From: Candidatus Krumholzibacteriia bacterium
GTDB lineage: Bacteria; Krumholzibacteriota; Krumholzibacteriia; WVZY01
Direction of reading: 5' to 3'
Length of the DNA: 25,652 nt
Assembly: GCA_036478295.1 (NCBI GenBank)
Contig: JAZGDW010000210.1
Coordinates: 1-25,652 of the forward strand
The notes beneath the pieces are model-generated. The model did no database searches and was not told the origin of the DNA. It was given only the letters and a program-made list of their open reading frames with translations. This document shows, piece by piece, positions 3,204 to 10,293 of the stretch (positions within the stretch are counted from its first letter, which is position 1; the number at the start of each line of letters is the position of its first letter). Both the position numbers and the translations under genes were made by a program.

Positions 3204-3319
3204 GCTCGGTTGGATACCGGCCCGCGCGTTTTGCGGCGGCTCGGACTACAGAATACACGCCCGATCGGCGTAGGGCAACACGCTTGTACAAAAGAGGGAC
3301 GCCAGCGCAAAGGGCGCCG

Positions 3320-3352
3320 GCGTCCGGAAAGAAGACGTTATTTTTCGGGCGC
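3320..3352 (-). terminator. Possible stem-loop immediately downstream of the FTR1 gene
   Basis: Imperfect inverted repeat GCGTCCGGAAA ... TTTTCGGGCGC, 6 nt after the stop. No clear U-tract. Confidence 0.25.
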
Positions 3353-3358
3353 TACTAC

Positions 3359-4966
3359 TTAAAAGTAGAACTCGTACTCGAGGATCCACTTCAGCGTGCC
3401 GTTCGGCGACGCGCTCGAAATACCAAACAGATACCCCACGTCATATTTCATCTTGCCAAGTTTCCCGTAAAAGACCGGTCCGAGCAGATGCGTCTGGTCG
3501 CGGTAGGGGCCGATATCCTTCAGCTCACCGAAGTTGCTGTGGAGCTCCACACCCGGCTCGAAGTTGCGCCGCAGCCGGTAGCGCGTGCTCCACGCCAGGC
3601 CCGCCTCCGTCGCCTCGGTCGCGTGCGAGCCGACCTGCTGCTCCAGTATCAGGTTCGTAATGTGGAGGAGCCTGCCCTGTTCTTTCTGCAGCAGTACTTT
3701 GGCCTCGAACTTGTCCGCGTGGCCGCCCTGCAGGGACCACTCGTACGCGGCATAGAGACCGACATCGAGCCATTTCTCACCGGGCTCAAAGAGCCGCAGC
3801 CGGTGTTCCCACTCGATAGCGGTGAACTCGAAGTCGTCTCCCGGTGACTTCTCGATCTCGCCGTAAATCTCGGTAAACCAGCGTTCGGTAAAACCGTATC
3901 CGACCGCGTACTTCTGTTTCTGTTTTCCATCCCTCAGTGCGTTGTCATCGACGTCGTAGCTGCCGCGCGCTTCGACTTCGAGCTCGCGGTATTCCGCGTT
4001 CGGCGAGTAGACCTTCTTGGTCGCCACCGCATCGACGGGCAGAACCAGGCCCGCCATCCCGGCGATCAACACGCCGATGACTGCGGCCCGGGCCCCGCGG
4101 CCTTTCCCAACGCCAGCGGTGCCGGGCACCCCGACTGCCTGTGAGGTGCCGCGGACGCGCGCGACGGCGGCACCACCGAACGACTTGAGCAGCAGGCCAA
4201 TGACACCCAGGGTCGCCAGATAGGCGGCGAGCTGAATGCCCGTCGGCTGCGCACTGTAGCCTACCAGTGTCTGAAGAACACTCCCCACCATTCCCCGCTC
4301 GGAGAGCAGCCACGAACTATCCCAAAGCGGCGAAGTCATGACCGGAATGAAACCGGCGCTCCCGAGTATCTGCACCGCCTGCGACACCATGGCGGCCGCG
4401 AGGAACGTGAGCAGCACGCCGGTGACCGAAAAGAAGTAACGCGTCGCCATTTTGATCAGTCCGAAATAAATACCCGCGCCGATCAGCGCCCCGGCGACCA
4501 GCCCCAGCAGGCCACCGGTGACGACACTAAGAACCGTCTGGCCGGACAGAAGAACACCGTAGGTCAGGAGAACGATCTCCGAGCCCTCGCGCAGAATGGC
4601 GAGCATCATGACGACGGCAATGATGTAGAGGGGACGCTTGCCCTCGGCGACCGCTTCGCCGACCGCCTTCAGCCGCTGGGCGAGGTACATCGCGTGGCGT
4701 TTCATCCACACGACCGTCCAGCCGATGAGCACCGCGGCCAACAGGAGAACCGACGCGTTGAAAACCTCCTGGCCCATGCCGGAGATGGCGTCGGAGATGG
4801 CACCGGCGCTCAGGGCAACAATGCACGACCCGGCCACTCCTGCCACCAGTCCCGCGGTGAGCCAGCGCCCACGCCCGACGAGTCCGCGCGTGGCCACGAG
4901 GACCACGCCGAGAATCAGTGACATTTCCAGAACTTCACGAAAAACGATGATGGTTGTGGATAACAT
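3359..4966 (-). CDS. FTR1/EfeU-family iron permease fused to a C-terminal putative outer-membrane beta-barrel domain
   Basis: Two RExxE iron-permease motifs (FREVLE, LREGSE), QEVFNA, WTVVWM, PLWDSSWLL and LVGY..QPT in the first ~262 aa. These are followed by a signal-peptide-like segment and a 220-aa domain with alternating aromatic/polar residues ending WILEYEFYF. Confidence 0.88.
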   Translation of the reverse strand: MLSTTIIVFREVLEMSLILGVVLVATRGLVGRGRWLTAGLVAGVAGSCIVALSAGAISDAISGMGQEVFNASVLLLAAVLIGWTVVWMKRHAMYLAQRLKAVGEAVAEGKRPLYIIAVVMMLAILREGSEIVLLTYGVLLSGQTVLSVVTGGLLGLVAGALIGAGIYFGLIKMATRYFFSVTGVLLTFLAAAMVSQAVQILGSAGFIPVMTSPLWDSSWLLSERGMVGSVLQTLVGYSAQPTGIQLAAYLATLGVIGLLLKSFGGAAVARVRGTSQAVGVPGTAGVGKGRGARAAVIGVLIAGMAGLVLPVDAVATKKVYSPNAEYRELEVEARGSYDVDDNALRDGKQKQKYAVGYGFTERWFTEIYGEIEKSPGDDFEFTAIEWEHRLRLFEPGEKWLDVGLYAAYEWSLQGGHADKFEAKVLLQKEQGRLLHITNLILEQQVGSHATEATEAGLAWSTRYRLRRNFEPGVELHSNFGELKDIGPYRDQTHLLGPVFYGKLGKMKYDVGYLFGISSASPNGTLKWILEYEFYF

Positions 4967-5013: not shown

Positions 5014-5502
5014 CTAACGGGCGATGATGACGCCCTGCGCCGTCTTTGGGTTGAATTCGCCGAAATATTTGTACGTGCCCGGCTTGAGCGGGCCGATGAA
5101 GACGATGATCTTGCGTCCTCCGGAGACGACCTTCTCACGGTTGAGGTCGTAGCTCTCGAATTCCTCCGGTGTCCGATCGAGATTCTCGATGCGCAGCTTG
5201 ATTTTCTTGTTCGCGGGTACGACCAGTTCCGCCGGGATGAACTTGTGGTCCTTGATCTGGATCACGTAGACATCTTTGAGCACCGGTTTGACATCCTTGA
5301 CGTCGATCTCTTTCTTCGTCGTTTCGGCAGACGTTGCGTCGCCGTCTTTCTTCGCCTTGCCGGTGTCCTTGTCTGCCGCCAGTCCCGACCCCATAAAGAG
5401 AAAACAAACGAGTCCCGCGGCCAGAACGGCTCTGGCCATCGTCTGTTTCCGTCCGGCGTGGTCCCCGGGAATCTTCCCTCCGCTCTTGTCTACCTTTATC
5501 AT
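5014..5502 (-). CDS. Exported cupredoxin-domain protein (EfeO N-domain / FtrB-like)
   Basis: SD GGAGGAG before ATG 5502 (alternative ATG at 5439). Hydrophobic signal segment, then FIPAELVVPA, PEEFES, LNREKVV and GPLKPGTYKYFGEFNP. Lies directly upstream of FTR1. Confidence 0.88.
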   Translation of the reverse strand: MIKVDKSGGKIPGDHAGRKQTMARAVLAAGLVCFLFMGSGLAADKDTGKAKKDGDATSAETTKKEIDVKDVKPVLKDVYVIQIKDHKFIPAELVVPANKKIKLRIENLDRTPEEFESYDLNREKVVSGGRKIIVFIGPLKPGTYKYFGEFNPKTAQGVIIAR

Positions 5503-5526
5503 GCCTGCTCCTCCATGCCTGGATAG

Positions 5527-5739
5527 TTAGGGTTGCCTAAGAATACGACCAAAAAAATTAGGAATGCCTAACAATCCGCCCAAAAAAATATTGGGAAAGA
5601 TTTCGCCTGGTTAGGCATGCCTAAGTAATACCTCCAAAAAAAACTGATACCGTTCATTTTTAAGCCTTTAGCGGCGCTCTGGTGTGAAACACCTGACCGA
5701 GTACCTGATTACTCCCGCATCATAGTTAGGAACCGCTAA
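5527..5739. promoter_or_regulatory. Four TTAGG-N4-CCTAA palindromes (DtxR/SirR/MntR-family operator-like)
   Basis: TTAGGGTTGCCTAA at 5527-5540, TTAGGAATGCCTAA at 5558-5571, TTAGGCATGCCTAA at 5611-5624 and TTAGGAACCGCTAA at 5726-5739. All lie upstream of an iron-uptake operon. Confidence 0.8.
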
Positions 5740-5747
5740 CTTGTCAA
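5719..5747 (-). promoter_or_regulatory. Sigma70 promoter of the cupredoxin-FTR1 operon
   Basis: Minus strand TTGACA (5747-5742), 17-nt spacer, TATGAT (5724-5719). The fourth palindrome sits inside the spacer. Confidence 0.75.
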
Positions 5748-5985
5748 CGCAAAAAAACTTGATTATTGTCAATTACCGGGGTTCCGCTCCCGCCCTGCGG
5801 GCACCTGGGATCACCGGACGAATACGATCTTCCGGGTCCGCTTCTCGCCGCTTATATAGCACAGATTGCCGGCCGGGCGCACTTGTGGACAAAGATAACG
5901 GGCTGCTCCCCGGAGAGAAAACAGCCCGTATATTGTATTACCACGAACCCGCCGCCAATTACTTCAAAGCGTGCTGAGGGGCGTG

Positions 5986-6885
5986 CTACCGTCGCCCGAA
6001 CCTGTCAAAACTCCAGGTCGTCGCAATATCGAACGTCTTCGCGTCGTGTGTGTTCTCCCCTGACACAGTAGACCCGAATGACACCGAGACGTCGAAGTTG
6101 GGAAACAGTCCATACGCCACAGCGCCCCCGAACCGAGTGTAGCTCGTGGCTGCCAGACGATCGTGGGCGTGACCAGTTTCGCTAGTGATTTGGAGCCAGT
6201 CGATCCCGTCGTGCGCGAATTGCAGGTTCGTAAAGCCGCTGACCGTAATCCTTTCGGTCAGGAAATACCCTGCGGCAAAATCGAGGTTACTCCGATCGAC
6301 TCCGATGTCTCCGATTTCTTCCGTGAGTGTGTACGCGTATCGTCCCTGCACGTAGACATCACTGAGGAACGGGTACAGGACCCTGCCCGCGCTCAAGCCC
6401 AGCTGTAGTTCGGTGAGATTCCTTCCAACGGCCGCATGACCCAGGGTTTCGTACCCATGGGTTGGTACGACGACCCCGATGAAGGGCGTCGCTACAAACG
6501 GCTTGTTGAACGCCATGTAACGCACGCGCAGCGAGAAGTCCTGCAACTCACCGTGGTAGATGCCGTTGTCGATCCCGGATTCCGCAAAACCCGACGGTCC
6601 ACCGAACTTCGCCGCCACCGCCGCAAGGTTGGCGTCCACCGCCAGGTTTCTCAAAATTCCGTACTGCAGACTGATTACCCCGGTGCTCGAGAAGATTTCG
6701 CCGAAATCGAATTCGGTACCATCCGAAAATAAATGATTATCGACCGAAAGGTACTGGTAACCAATGGTAGCCGATCCCTGGCCCCTGGCGGGCAGCCACG
6801 CCTGGGCCAAGACCACCGAAGGAATGACAAGCGTCATCACCAGGGCGAGAGATAGTACTATTCGCACCGATTCTGCGAACCGCAT
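5986..6885 (-). CDS. Exported protein, putative outer-membrane beta-barrel / transporter
   Basis: SD AGGAGG, signal peptide ending VLA|QAW, amphipathic strands rich in Gly/aromatics (SLQYGI, LQDFSLRVRY, FIGVVVPT, YVQGRYAY), and a C-terminal strand IATTWSF. Confidence 0.7.
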   Translation of the reverse strand: MRFAESVRIVLSLALVMTLVIPSVVLAQAWLPARGQGSATIGYQYLSVDNHLFSDGTEFDFGEIFSSTGVISLQYGILRNLAVDANLAAVAAKFGGPSGFAESGIDNGIYHGELQDFSLRVRYMAFNKPFVATPFIGVVVPTHGYETLGHAAVGRNLTELQLGLSAGRVLYPFLSDVYVQGRYAYTLTEEIGDIGVDRSNLDFAAGYFLTERITVSGFTNLQFAHDGIDWLQITSETGHAHDRLAATSYTRFGGAVAYGLFPNFDVSVSFGSTVSGENTHDAKTFDIATTWSFDRFGRR

Positions 6886-7663: not shown

Positions 7664-10210
7664 TCAGTACTGCGATCGCAGGCGGTCGTGCAGTTTCTTG
7701 AGTTCCGCCACGCACTGCTCGTAACCGGGTAGCTCGCTAATAGTCACGCCCTTAGGGCCAAACATAATCCTGTTTCCCTCTACAGCAAACATATTATCGC
7801 TGCCCTTCTGCGCGGCGATCTTCAGCAACTCGAACGCTCGTTCGGGTTGGTCCACATAGAAGTGTGACATCGCTACAAAAAACAACTCTTCACCCTGGAA
7901 TGGCTCGCTCAAAAGTCTCATTTCCTCCTGCCAGAGCTTTTCTCTGTCTCCAGACACGCCATACATGGCAGCGAGCCCCGCACGCATCCGGAAATTGTCC
8001 GGGTACGCAGCCAGACTCTTTCTCAAGTTTTCAATTTCCTTCGCATACGCTTCCCTTGCTTTTTCCTTCTCGCCAATGGAGTCGTACAAGTGGCCAAGGT
8101 GTGCCGTGGCCACTTCGCCCCCTGGCAGCTCTAGCGCTCGCTCGTAGTGGACCCGTGCCGCATCGAGGTCCCCCAGGTGATGGTATGAATCCCCCACCCA
8201 TCTGTGAATTTCTCCGTCCTCACCGAATTTTGTAAAGAATTCCTCTCCGGTCTCGAGGGTCTTTTCGTGTTGATTTGCCCAATTGTGCGCCATCACAAGA
8301 AACCAGTGGGCCCCACGGTTGGCCGGGTCGCGCTCGATAATCCTCTCCAACAGCACGACCGCTTTGTCTGGTTGCCCACCCATGAAATAGGCCTGTGCAC
8401 GAACAAACAGAGCCTCGATATCATCCCGTCCTTCGAGAACCGATGCGTGACCCTGTTTCAGAACTTCCTCACTCTGACCCTTCTCCCAGTAGACCCGTAC
8501 CAATCCCGCACGTGCATTCGTGGACTTCGAATCCGATTCGAGCGCACGCCGGTAATTCGCCTCGGCGATTTCCAGGTTTTTGGCACCACCTTCCCATCCA
8601 TAATAGAACCGGTTTGAATGGATGGCGCCAATACCAACGTAGGCTTCCGCCAGGTTTGGATCGAGCTGAATAGCCTTTTCGAAAAAAATCAACGCTCGAG
8701 CGTCCGCGTCGTAGGTCTCCTCCTGCATGGCCAATGCGCCTTTGTAATAGTGCTCGAGGGCCGCTACGCTCTCTGCGGCGGGCCTGGCCAGTTCGACCTC
8801 TTCTTCTCCCGTGATCTTCCCTTTAAGACTCTGTGCTACCCCGGTTGCTATCTTACGCTGCACGGCGAAAAGATCATCGACCGATTCCTCGAACTCATCC
8901 GCCCAGTACTGCGTTTCCCTTTTCGCCTCGACGAGCGATATGGTCCCCTGGATGCGACCCCCAACAACCCTGAAAGAGCCTACGATCAGTGCATCGACGT
9001 GCAATTCGTCGGCAATCTCTCCGAGTGACACTGCTGCATCCGAATATCGTCGCGAGGTCCTCCAGGGCGTGATTCGCAGGTCGGGTATTCCTAGCTGCGT
9101 GAGCTTGGCTGTCAGCGTTTCGCTGATTGCCTGGGCAACCCAGTCGCTCTCGCTCGGCGATTGGCTGTCGTTGACCAGCGGCAGTACAGCGACGGACGCA
9201 AAGGGATGCGGGCTGCCAAAGTGCAACCCACCGGTTTTCCACAAGATGCCCATGACGAGCCCAAGAACCGCAGCCCAGATCAACCACCCCACGGGGCGCC
9301 GTGGAACCAACACCCCCGAAATCCGTGTGACCAGTTTGCGGCGCCTGCCTCTTTTACTCACCAGCGCGGCGGTTTCCGCATCCGTTTCCGGCCGCGGCGG
9401 CTCGCCCCGAAATTCCCGAAGTTCCGCCTCGAATTCCTGCGCCGTCTGGTAACGCTCCCCAGGATCTTTCGCCAGCGCCTTCAACACCATCCGGTCCAAT
9501 GCGGGATCGATTTCAGGATTGTGCTCGCTCGGCGGCCTCGCATCCTCGTTCACTGCAAGATAAGAAAGCGCCTCCTGTCGCTCAGCTTCGAACGGCAGTT
9601 TTCCGGTCAGCATCTCGTAGAGCACAACGCCCAACCCGTAGATATCTGAGCGATGATCCGATTGTTCACCCTTCAGTACCTCGGGGGCCAGGTACGCTGT
9701 CGTCCCCATGGCCACTCCCGTTCGGGTGAGCCGAGATGCTCCCTCCGGAAGCGCCAGGCCGAAATCTACGACCACTACGTGGCCGTCCTTGGTGGTCATG
9801 ATGTTGCGTGCGGTCACATCCCGGTGCAGCACTCCCCGGGAGTGTGCATGCCCCAGGGCCTCACACGCTTCGCGGCCAATACGGGTGGCTTCACTGAGCG
9901 GCATCGGCCCCTGCCTGATGCGGTCCGCCACCGTTTCACCGTCGACGAAGAGCATGGCAAGGTAGATCTGCCCATCCGCCTCACCGGCATCGTAAACGGT
10001 AGCAATCCCGGGGTGGTTCAGGGTGGAGGCAGAGCGCGCTTCGCGCAGCAGGCGGCGTCGGGCGTCCGCAGAGGAGGAGACGGATTCCGGAAGGAACTTG
10101 AGCGCGACGGTGCGCGCGAGCAGCGGGTCTTCGGCTTTCCACACCGTACCCATGCCGCCTTCACCGATCTTGGCGACAATTCTGTAGCGGCTTATTGTTC
10201 GACCGATCAT
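7664..10210 (-). CDS. Membrane Hanks-type protein kinase with TolB-N/FlgO-like and TPR domains (paralog K1, 848 aa)
   Basis: Start set at MIGRTI by analogy with the paralogs. Kinase motifs GEGGMGTV, VALK, REA, HRDVTARN, DFG, GTTAYLAPE and SDIYGLG. Then a basic stretch, TM helix WLIWAAVLGLVMGILW, SVAVLPL and TPR-like repeats. Confidence 0.92.
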   Translation of the reverse strand: MIGRTISRYRIVAKIGEGGMGTVWKAEDPLLARTVALKFLPESVSSSADARRRLLREARSASTLNHPGIATVYDAGEADGQIYLAMLFVDGETVADRIRQGPMPLSEATRIGREACEALGHAHSRGVLHRDVTARNIMTTKDGHVVVVDFGLALPEGASRLTRTGVAMGTTAYLAPEVLKGEQSDHRSDIYGLGVVLYEMLTGKLPFEAERQEALSYLAVNEDARPPSEHNPEIDPALDRMVLKALAKDPGERYQTAQEFEAELREFRGEPPRPETDAETAALVSKRGRRRKLVTRISGVLVPRRPVGWLIWAAVLGLVMGILWKTGGLHFGSPHPFASVAVLPLVNDSQSPSESDWVAQAISETLTAKLTQLGIPDLRITPWRTSRRYSDAAVSLGEIADELHVDALIVGSFRVVGGRIQGTISLVEAKRETQYWADEFEESVDDLFAVQRKIATGVAQSLKGKITGEEEVELARPAAESVAALEHYYKGALAMQEETYDADARALIFFEKAIQLDPNLAEAYVGIGAIHSNRFYYGWEGGAKNLEIAEANYRRALESDSKSTNARAGLVRVYWEKGQSEEVLKQGHASVLEGRDDIEALFVRAQAYFMGGQPDKAVVLLERIIERDPANRGAHWFLVMAHNWANQHEKTLETGEEFFTKFGEDGEIHRWVGDSYHHLGDLDAARVHYERALELPGGEVATAHLGHLYDSIGEKEKAREAYAKEIENLRKSLAAYPDNFRMRAGLAAMYGVSGDREKLWQEEMRLLSEPFQGEELFFVAMSHFYVDQPERAFELLKIAAQKGSDNMFAVEGNRIMFGPKGVTISELPGYEQCVAELKKLHDRLRSQY

Positions 10211-10293
10211 AGCTCTCGTAGGCCATACCAAGGGTTGCACTGATTACTAAGAGCGGGATACAATTAAGGCGGCGCGATATTCCGCTCCCCACG

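Follow-up and report, generated by a model that had tools for sequence, protein, structure and literature searches.

A contig of 25,652 nucleotides from a Candidatus Krumholzibacteriia bacterium (GenBank JAZGDW010000210.1, assembly GCA_036478295.1), herein referred to as the window, carries on its minus strand at positions 3359..4966 a single open reading frame (ORF) of 535 aa without internal stop. In this frame a permease of the FTR1 family is followed by a basic linker, a hydrophobic segment, and a 220-aa domain that is predicted to form an outer-membrane beta-barrel. The evidence is solid for the fused precursor, the predicted barrel fold, the descent of the C-terminal part from a protein secreted on its own, and the conserved signal-peptidase site. 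The favoured reading is a polyprotein that is cut by signal peptidase I, and we regard such processing as probable. The barrel would then be localized in the outer membrane, the transported ion would be Fe(II), and the genes would be regulated by iron.

The frame reads ...GVGKGRGAR-AAVIGVLIAGMAGLVL-PVDAVA/TKKVYSP..., where the slash marks the predicted cut, and its C-terminal end is LEYEFYF. Codon 316 (Thr) is located at 4021-4019, the 220-aa tail at 4021..3362, and the stop codon at 3361-3359. An earlier note, made from the sequence alone, had described a frame running past the FTR1 end through a basic linker into a signal peptide with Pro at -6 and an A-x-A site, and further into a 220-aa tail ending in LEYEFYF; all of these features were found as quoted. 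The parts of the fused gene are the following:

4157..4966, minus strand: FTR1/FtrC-type permease domain, residues 1-270, with seven hydrophobic segments and the motifs REVLE (10-14) and REGSE (126-130)
4082..4156, minus strand: basic non-conserved linker, residues 271-295, the presumed cytoplasmic n-region as judged by charge, alignments, and model confidence
4022..4081, minus strand: internal signal-peptide-like segment, residues 296-315, with the h-region VIGVLIAGMAGLVL, the c-region PVDAVA, and a predicted cut after A315
3362..4021, minus strand: predicted 12-stranded outer-membrane beta-barrel domain, residues 316-535, with the conserved N-terminal TKKVYSP and the C-terminal beta-signal LEYEFYF

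Occurrence of the fused gene

When residues 290-535 were used in a word-indexed search limited to proteins between 294 and 937 aa, 80 matches were obtained, the query among them; 79 carry FTR1, and most are 510-535 aa long. An exhaustive search with residues 291-535 against representatives at 50% identity gave 1066 matches with E ≤ 1e-3 and 144 with E ≤ 1e-30. Among the best 150 representatives, 35 are linked to FTR1 (20 full-length and 15 N-terminally truncated), 104 are proteins of 225-300 aa without FTR1, 10 are short fragments, and one is unclear. In total, the fused form is conserved in about a hundred non-redundant proteins, far beyond chance. In public databases these proteins are named "FTR1 family protein", "high-affinity iron transporter", or "hypothetical protein", with the barrel unmentioned.

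Nine fused loci were found in named genomes: three in Candidatus Omnitrophota (two of them cut by contig ends), two in Planctomycetales, one in Micavibrio, two in other Alphaproteobacteria, and one in Pseudobdellovibrionaceae. A cupredoxin gene lies immediately 5' of the fused gene in all nine. The barrel itself is rare in the phylum of the window, being present in 3 of 208 genomes at E ≤ 1e-20. Around the Micavibrio genome it was found in 33 of 401 class genomes and in 71 of 401 phylum genomes, each tally counting one unpublished genome; frames long enough for the fusion were found at 7 of 36 matched places in the class sample and at 18 of 77 in the phylum sample. Thus, the barrel occurs patchily and in more than one phylum.

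An assembly or sequencing error, such as a lost stop codon or a frameshift, could in principle create a fused frame. The genome of the window is fragmented (316 contigs), and a genome of the same order, G031, has both genes in different frames. Against this stand about a hundred non-redundant fused proteins from independent sources, and other assemblies carry copies identical to the protein of the window at 534 of 535 and at 506 of 535 residues. In the latter copy the linker differs by a one-residue indel and numerous substitutions, and the frame and the sequence PVDSVA/TKKVYSP are nevertheless retained. Sequences crossing the junction were available as well. Each of 18 sequencing runs, none of them of RNA, contained less than 0.3 of the sampled words, and the four that were examined consist of contigs of related strains. 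Two of these contigs, from different runs, bridge the predicted cleavage site without indels (X3 record 15, 3982-4129; X5 record 19, 3963-4100); no contig in the four runs covers the full stretch from helix 7 to the barrel, and the contigs add little beyond the conservation at the protein level. An artefact is refuted for practical purposes. The singleton or lost stop that the earlier note had named as a danger is contradicted by the 79 of 80 FTR1-bearing matches, the nine loci, and the 506/535 copy, and at the junction, which it had proposed to check in reads, the two contigs show no indel.

The permease domain and its topology

Members of the FTR1 family are defined by a pair of REXXE motifs in transmembrane segments. 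Both motifs are present here (R10-E-V-L-E14 and R126-E-G-S-E130), and R10, E11, E14, R126, G128, and E130 are invariant in an alignment of 94 fused proteins. Residues 1-257 match Pfam FTR1 (PF03239) with E 3e-28 and 99.3 bits against a cut-off of 25.3. The score against the NCBIfam equivalog model for EfeU (NF041756) is 131.1 bits, under the cut-off of 255; the permease is therefore a member of the family and not an EfeU orthologue.

By hydropathy, the FTR1 part contains seven hydrophobic segments, with an eighth following at 296-314, and the helices in the AlphaFold2 models agree with this for the permease. The alternation of Lys/Arg-rich loops fits a predicted N-out/C-in orientation of the permease, and the loop ahead of the eighth segment (265-295) contains five Lys/Arg and no Asp/Glu. 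The eighth segment would thus cross the membrane from inside to outside, and the tail would therefore be exported, as had been proposed from the sequence for an eighth helix following a cytoplasmic C-terminus; this agreement is one of predictions. The full-length AlphaFold2 model, built from 94 sequences, has a mean predicted local distance difference test score (pLDDT) of 88.4 and a predicted template modelling score (pTM) of 0.55, and both the permease and the barrel are confident in it. The pLDDT is below 50 for the linker (275-293) and for residues 304-315, and blocks over the helix 291-305 average 41-52. In this model, the linker and the eighth helix are unpacked, and the helix does not form an integral part of the permease fold.

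The barrel domain

The 220-aa domain was modelled with AlphaFold2 from an alignment of 103 sequences as a 12-stranded all-beta structure (mean pLDDT 98.2, pTM 0.91). Foldseek gave 61 matches in PDB with E ≤ 1e-3, led by FapF, the beta-domains of invasin and intimin, OmpG, Tsx, and NanC; among the matches listed, every one is an outer-membrane barrel or a barrel-based entry. In a search independent of Foldseek, the best matches were FapF (5o65, Z 21.6, 211 residues aligned, 2.7 Å) and the COG4313 channel Pput2725 (4rl8, Z 20.9, 213 residues, 2.8 Å), with KdgM at Z 18.8, autotransporter barrels at 17-18, NanC at 17.1, and PcoB at 12.8.

For this domain no Pfam family was found at E ≤ 1 and no NCBIfam model matched. 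Searching with a profile built from 103 relatives gave no sequence match to a solved structure (best E 0.68, irrelevant). Weak matches were found among these relatives, 14 to OMP_b-brl and 6 to Phenol_MetA_deg (PF13557, at E ≤ 0.01, best 1.2e-5).

With the faces assigned by strand parity and not by coordinates, 48 of 71 residues on the lipid face are aromatic or aliphatic, and the lumen face contains 20 Asp/Glu and 11 Lys/Arg in this protein and 20.3 and 9.4, respectively, on average in the family. Nine acidic positions of the lumen (E328, E330, E332, E366, E387, D401, E474, E530, and E532) are kept in at least 80% of the family, and no basic position is kept to this degree. An aromatic residue ends the chain in 101 of the 119 fused and 95 of the 116 stand-alone relatives. 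The first 12 residues of the barrel (TKKVYSPNAEYR) belong to the most conserved ones of the family, with P322 invariant and Y320 and V324 present in at least 90% of sequences; the fold match to 4rl8 begins at residue 2 of the barrel model. The host genome contains eight matches to the Omp85/BamA family, the best with 200.9 bits.

The 12 confidently modelled strands, the fold matches, the alternating faces, and the aromatic C-terminus make the prediction of an outer-membrane-type barrel solid, and they bear out what had been read from the strand-rich sequence.

The internal signal-peptide-like segment and the predicted cleavage site

The predicted site in this protein has Pro at -6 and Ala at -3 and -1 (A313-V-A315). 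A cleavage-site profile was derived from 113 fused proteins aligned on the mature N-terminus, with six near-identical cluster members dropped. No residue exceeds 42% at any of the positions -22 to -4; Ala is found at -3 in 84% and at -1 in 93% of these proteins. The von Heijne (-3,-1) rule is satisfied in 103 of the 113 and in 74 of 97 stand-alone homologues, Pro or Gly within -8 to -4 occurs in 106 and 70, and Pro at +1 in none and five, respectively. The uncharged stretch before the site has a median length of 19 residues in both classes (119 fused and 102 stand-alone proteins), the eight residues ahead of it carry a net charge of about +2.3, and the linker sequence is variable across the alignments. 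Because small residues are kept where the helix varies, and a plain anchor would have no reason to keep them, the -3/-1 site is under selection in the fused forms.

Stand-alone homologues of the barrel are about 250 aa long and begin with a signal peptide that stops immediately ahead of the same TKKVYSP motif, for example ...SLSQPAYA/TKKVYSP and ...LLPRDAHA/TQKVTSP. Judged by these alignments, the hydrophobic segment of the fused proteins is a signal peptide by descent, since it matches the position of the N-terminal signal peptides of the stand-alone barrels. The enzyme that would cut it is encoded by the host (signal peptidase I, TIGR02227, 135.2 bits against a cut-off of 47).

Alternatively, the hydrophobic segment could be an uncleaved eighth transmembrane helix, with the barrel staying attached as a periplasmic module, an inner-membrane module, or an outer-membrane tether. 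In its favour are the single ORF without a stop codon and the violation of the (-3,-1) rule in 10 of the 113 fused proteins, which also weighs against the polyprotein. The site was called from this rule and from homology and not with a signal-peptide predictor, and cleavage by signal peptidase I, like the two products and the coupled stoichiometry suggested in the earlier note, is something that we infer rather than observe. The conserved Ala at -3 and -1 beside a variable helix is unexpected for a plain anchor, and the hydrophobic outer face and BAM-type C-terminus (BAM, beta-barrel assembly machinery) resemble those of true outer-membrane proteins. In the AlphaFold2 models, strand 1 follows the hydrophobic segment after only about 16 residues; at about 3.5 Å per residue they would span less than 6 nm, well short of the usual width of the periplasm, and the uncleaved protein could therefore hardly place its barrel in the outer membrane. 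In the COG4313 channel, moreover, the approximately 14 residues before strand 1 fold into the lumen, as an excerpt of its description states (PMC4493636), and a tether this short would hinder folding of that type. Fused and unfused genes also interchange freely in evolution, as described below. A permanently attached barrel is thus improbable, and the polyprotein cut by signal peptidase I is preferred.

Possible internal translation starts

Another possibility is that most of the barrel comes from translation initiated within the fused gene, at a start left over from the ancestral barrel gene, and that the read-through fusion is a tolerated by-product. In the gene of the window no Shine-Dalgarno-like sequence was found ahead of any in-frame start in the linker, as the earlier note had reported, and the alignments of 24 and 94 fused proteins contain no conserved Met or Val column there. 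In other genomes the picture is mixed, and this counts against a purely post-translational origin of the barrel: in 3 of the 8 fused genes with available DNA, an in-frame start that lies in the linker or close to it, upstream of the hydrophobic segment, is preceded by a Shine-Dalgarno-like sequence. At one of the Omnitrophota loci (L002), a perfect AGGAGGT precedes by 6 nt an in-frame ATG at codon 258, inside helix 7. This AGGAGGT is encoded by Ile-Gly-Gly codons, and it is either a coding coincidence or a working internal barrel start in that lineage. Two loci also keep a Met that would open a normal signal peptide, L007 (MNKNTSLPAG..., with AGGA upstream) and L003 (MKKVYSLARKG..., without a Shine-Dalgarno-like sequence). 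To judge from these sequences, some lineages may also, or instead, produce the barrel by internal initiation. Without a stop codon, every ribosome that translates the permease makes the tail, so that a read-through precursor needs processing regardless of internal starts. As the principal source of the barrel, internal initiation is as improbable as the uncleaved helix, and we continue to favour the cleaved polyprotein.

Stand-alone barrels and the evolution of the fusion

The stand-alone homologues next to FTR1 and cupredoxin genes for which the earlier note had suggested a search do exist. In G031 the two genes are separate and in different frames; the FTR1 protein is 274 aa long, its TGA overlaps the ATG of the barrel gene (TGATG), and the barrel has the N-terminus MRVGLPAAAACLAAVLALPTVATA|TLKVYSP, with the bar at the predicted cut. 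Altogether, 41 stand-alone loci were analyzed, all from proteobacterial genomes. The order cupredoxin-FTR1-barrel was found in 14 of them, several with one base common to the end of FTR1 and the start of the barrel and others with gaps of about 25-90 nt. In five loci a cupredoxin gene lies beside the barrel without FTR1, and in 22 loci (one at a contig edge) neither gene was found within about 4-5 kb. Given the overlapping stop and start codons in unfused loci, the fusion is what a one-base slip there would give.

A FastTree phylogeny was constructed for 219 barrel domains (113 fused and 106 stand-alone); near-identical members and incomplete barrels were excluded, as were stand-alone rows with over 60 upstream residues. 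The fused/stand-alone label changes 33 times on this tree, at least 19 of these changes being forced by well-supported branches, and shuffled labels require 73 changes on average; some of the changes may reflect noise from gene calling or frameshifts in metagenomes. The pattern nevertheless indicates that the fused and unfused arrangements are functionally equivalent, as is most easily explained if both give the same two mature proteins.

Several stand-alone barrels have other partners. One of them (L022, G393 contig 216; E 5.6e-101 to the family profile) is located among CopB-like, MerR-family, and CDF cation-efflux genes, a setting of metal resistance and not of uptake. At another locus (L061, G615 contig 13, 2638-6155) a stand-alone barrel gene comes directly after a cupredoxin gene, and an Nramp-family transporter instead of FTR1 is encoded about 765 nt beyond it on that strand; the pair of cupredoxin and barrel may serve several kinds of inner-membrane metal importer. 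Other copies adjoin TonB-dependent receptors, and many have unrelated neighbours. In one small genome, two equal-scoring barrel copies are 1.4 kb apart (L032, G365 contig 64, 1396-2214 and 3601-4374), and in another (G633 contig 2) two copies have one in-frame TAG each. These cases point to duplication and possibly to decay or recoding of the barrel gene.

Operon, cupredoxin, and putative regulation

The fused gene is the second gene of a two-gene operon, whose other elements in the window are the following:

5014..5502, minus strand: gene for an FtrB-like periplasmic cupredoxin of 162 aa with an N-terminal hydrophobic signal-like segment and the Pfam domain Cupredoxin_1
5719..5747, minus strand: sigma-70-like promoter TTGACA-17-TATGAT of the operon, 11 of 12 matches
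5527..5739: putative operator, four copies of the palindrome TTAGGNNNNCCTAA, exact at 5527-5540, 5558-5571, and 5611-5624, and with one mismatch at 5726-5739, where it overlaps the promoter
3297..3325, minus strand: terminator-like hairpin with T-run, 12 pairs including 10 G-C, 34 nt after the stop codon of the fused gene

Only two genes lie between the promoter (5747-5719) and the terminator (3325-3297), and upstream of the promoter the preceding gene ends in a terminator-like hairpin (5929-5898). The cupredoxin (Cupredoxin_1, E 1.7e-27) is most similar to the structure of Brucella FtrB (8vuk, E 6.9e-13 over residues 79-162). The Fe-binding glutamates of FtrB are E84, E86, and E93, and its proposed Cu ligands are D118 and H121, according to an excerpt of the structural report (PMC11966278). 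In the alignment with 8vuk, the three glutamates are retained as E114, E116, and E123.

Three exact copies of TTAGGNNNNCCTAA are located between the promoter and the cupredoxin start, and the copy with one mismatch is on the promoter. These four matches compare with 0.29 expected, and none of 100 shuffles reached four. The 3.5-Mb genome contains four exact sites in all, three of them in the leader of this operon and the fourth 47 nt upstream of feoA-feoB (G000 contig 276, 20227-20240; L042 4028-4041). In G031, two sites of the TTAGGNNNNCCTAA type were found 30-96 nt upstream of its own cupredoxin gene. No Fur box was found in 5480-6000, where the best match to the 19-bp Escherichia coli consensus, as commonly given, has seven mismatches. 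From these occurrences, TTAGGNNNNCCTAA is probably a repressor operator common to ferrous-iron uptake genes and recognized by an iron-responsive regulator, and the two-gene operon is probably iron-regulated.

Just upstream of the operon, at 5986-6885 on the minus strand, a separate transcription unit encodes a protein of 299 aa that has a signal peptide at its N-terminus and matches no Pfam family. The clusters to which it belongs in a protein atlas are partly annotated as Phenol_MetA_deg (structure TM 0.8-0.9), so that the operon may adjoin another outer-membrane barrel of the COG4313 kind.

Possible substrate of the barrel

The operator common to the operon and feoAB and the acidic lumen point to uptake of Fe(II). 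Another explanation is that the barrel is not a cation channel, that its substrates are hydrophobic or non-metal ones of the COG4313 kind, and that the link with FTR1 is incidental. The fold is nearest to FapF and to the COG4313 channel, neither of which is an ion channel; the authors of the latter structure judged it unlikely to carry hydrophilic solutes, according to an excerpt (PMC4493636). Six of 103 relatives have the weak Phenol_MetA_deg matches mentioned above, and 22 of the 41 stand-alone loci lack metal-uptake neighbours, and the barrel family as a whole is therefore not tied to FTR1. Further points that tell against Fe(II) transport are the replacement of the proposed Cu ligands of FtrB by G148 and N151 in the cupredoxin, the operator pattern, which is not enriched genome-wide (4 sites against 6 for a reversed control), and the reliance of the acidic lumen on strand parity. 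On the other side, the order cupredoxin-FTR1-barrel recurs, fused or unfused, in many lineages, the lumen assigned by parity has about 20 Asp/Glu against about 9-11 Lys/Arg with nine conserved acidic positions, and the other stand-alone copies that adjoin CopB, MerR, and CDF genes, TonB-dependent receptors, or cupredoxin and Nramp genes also have metal-related surroundings. A barrel unconnected with cations is unlikely, though somewhat less so than either the uncleaved helix or the internal start, and Fe(II) or another divalent cation is preferred as the substrate.

Comparison with known systems

FtrABCD and FtrAPBCD systems for Fe(II) uptake in Brucella, Bordetella, Burkholderia, and Rubrivivax gelatinosus likewise combine an FTR1-family permease with two REXXE motifs and an adjacent FtrB-type cupredoxin. 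In contrast to them, the operon of the window lacks P19/FtrA and the polyferredoxin FtrD, and neighbouring ORFs give no such Pfam hits; its cupredoxin lacks equivalents of D118 and H121 of Brucella FtrB, and its presumed outer-membrane component is located 3' of the permease gene and fused to it. No P19 gene was found among the scanned neighbours of stand-alone barrels, 65 ORFs at 14 of the first 21 loci and 39 ORFs at 12 of the next 20. The outer-membrane step of FTR1/FtrB-type uptake is usually ascribed to general porins. An outer-membrane partner of an Ftr system is nevertheless not unheard of, since the ftrAPBCD operon of R. gelatinosus encodes "an outer membrane protein (FtrP)", known here from the description in an excerpt of the report (PMC7415376).

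The barrel shares with Pput2725 (4rl8) and FapF (5o65) a monomer-sized 12-stranded architecture, a similar length, and a short conserved segment before strand 1. It differs from both in sequence (8-9% identity) and in a lumen face that is strongly acidic by strand parity, and from COG4313 proteins also in gene context, which here is metal uptake and not catabolism of aromatic or hydrophobic compounds. The copper channel PcoB/CopB (7pge) is likewise a small acid-lined outer-membrane barrel of a metal system; however, its fold is matched far less closely (Z 12.8 over 181 residues), its sequence is unrelated, and PcoB is not fused to an inner-membrane protein.

For the proposed processing, FbcH of Bradyrhizobium japonicum is the only bacterial precedent known to us. 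It is reportedly a cytochrome b/c1 polyprotein in which one ORF joins a polytopic inner-membrane protein, an internal signal peptide, and a protein facing the periplasm, and which is split post-translationally. The features that characterize this type, namely a polytopic part ending in the cytoplasm, an internal signal, and a tail homologous to independently secreted proteins, are also predicted from the fused sequences. Both products of FbcH are said to stay in one inner-membrane complex, whereas here the second product would reach another membrane. No description of an FTR1-barrel fusion, of the barrel family, or of an inner/outer-membrane polyprotein was found in full-text literature searches, which left most subscription journals uncovered.

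Proposed mechanism

In the proposed sequence of events, the seven permease helices would insert and leave the C-terminus in the cytoplasm. The eighth segment, the former signal peptide of the barrel, would then insert N-in/C-out and take the 220-aa tail through SecYEG, and signal peptidase I would cut after A313-V-A315, the signal peptide staying on the permease as an eighth helix. After its release, the barrel, now with the N-terminus TKKVYSP, would be directed to BAM by its C-terminal aromatic signal and placed in the outer membrane. There the acid-lined barrel would pass Fe(II) or another divalent cation across the outer membrane, the cupredoxin would bind Fe(II) in the periplasm, and the permease would import it.

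A wider proposal, to which we give equal measures of belief and doubt, is that an outer-membrane protein is made as the tail of a polytopic inner-membrane protein, reaches SecYEG co-translationally through the targeting of the permease by a route of the signal recognition particle type, and is freed by signal peptidase I, with its signal peptide becoming a permanent eighth helix. In this proposal the barrel would be the missing dedicated outer-membrane gate of cupredoxin/FTR1 uptake of Fe(II), and 1:1 co-production would be a selected trait, because lineages repeatedly switch between a fused gene and translationally coupled genes.

If cleaved as proposed, the fused protein would be a natural case, widespread in several phyla, in which both membranes of a diderm cell are supplied from one ORF. 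It would also offer a ready-made system for asking whether delivery of outer-membrane proteins can be co-translational and what becomes of a signal peptide that cannot be released, and the family of small acid-lined 12-stranded barrels, so far unannotated, would be the outer-membrane partner of FTR1/FtrB-type ferrous uptake.

Other genes of the window

Two further genes of the window are unrelated to the operon. At 199-1221 on the plus strand a protein with an ARPP-1 domain is encoded (PF20208, E 1.4e-68), and at 7664-10240 on the minus strand an 858-aa Ser/Thr protein kinase with C-terminal TPR repeats.

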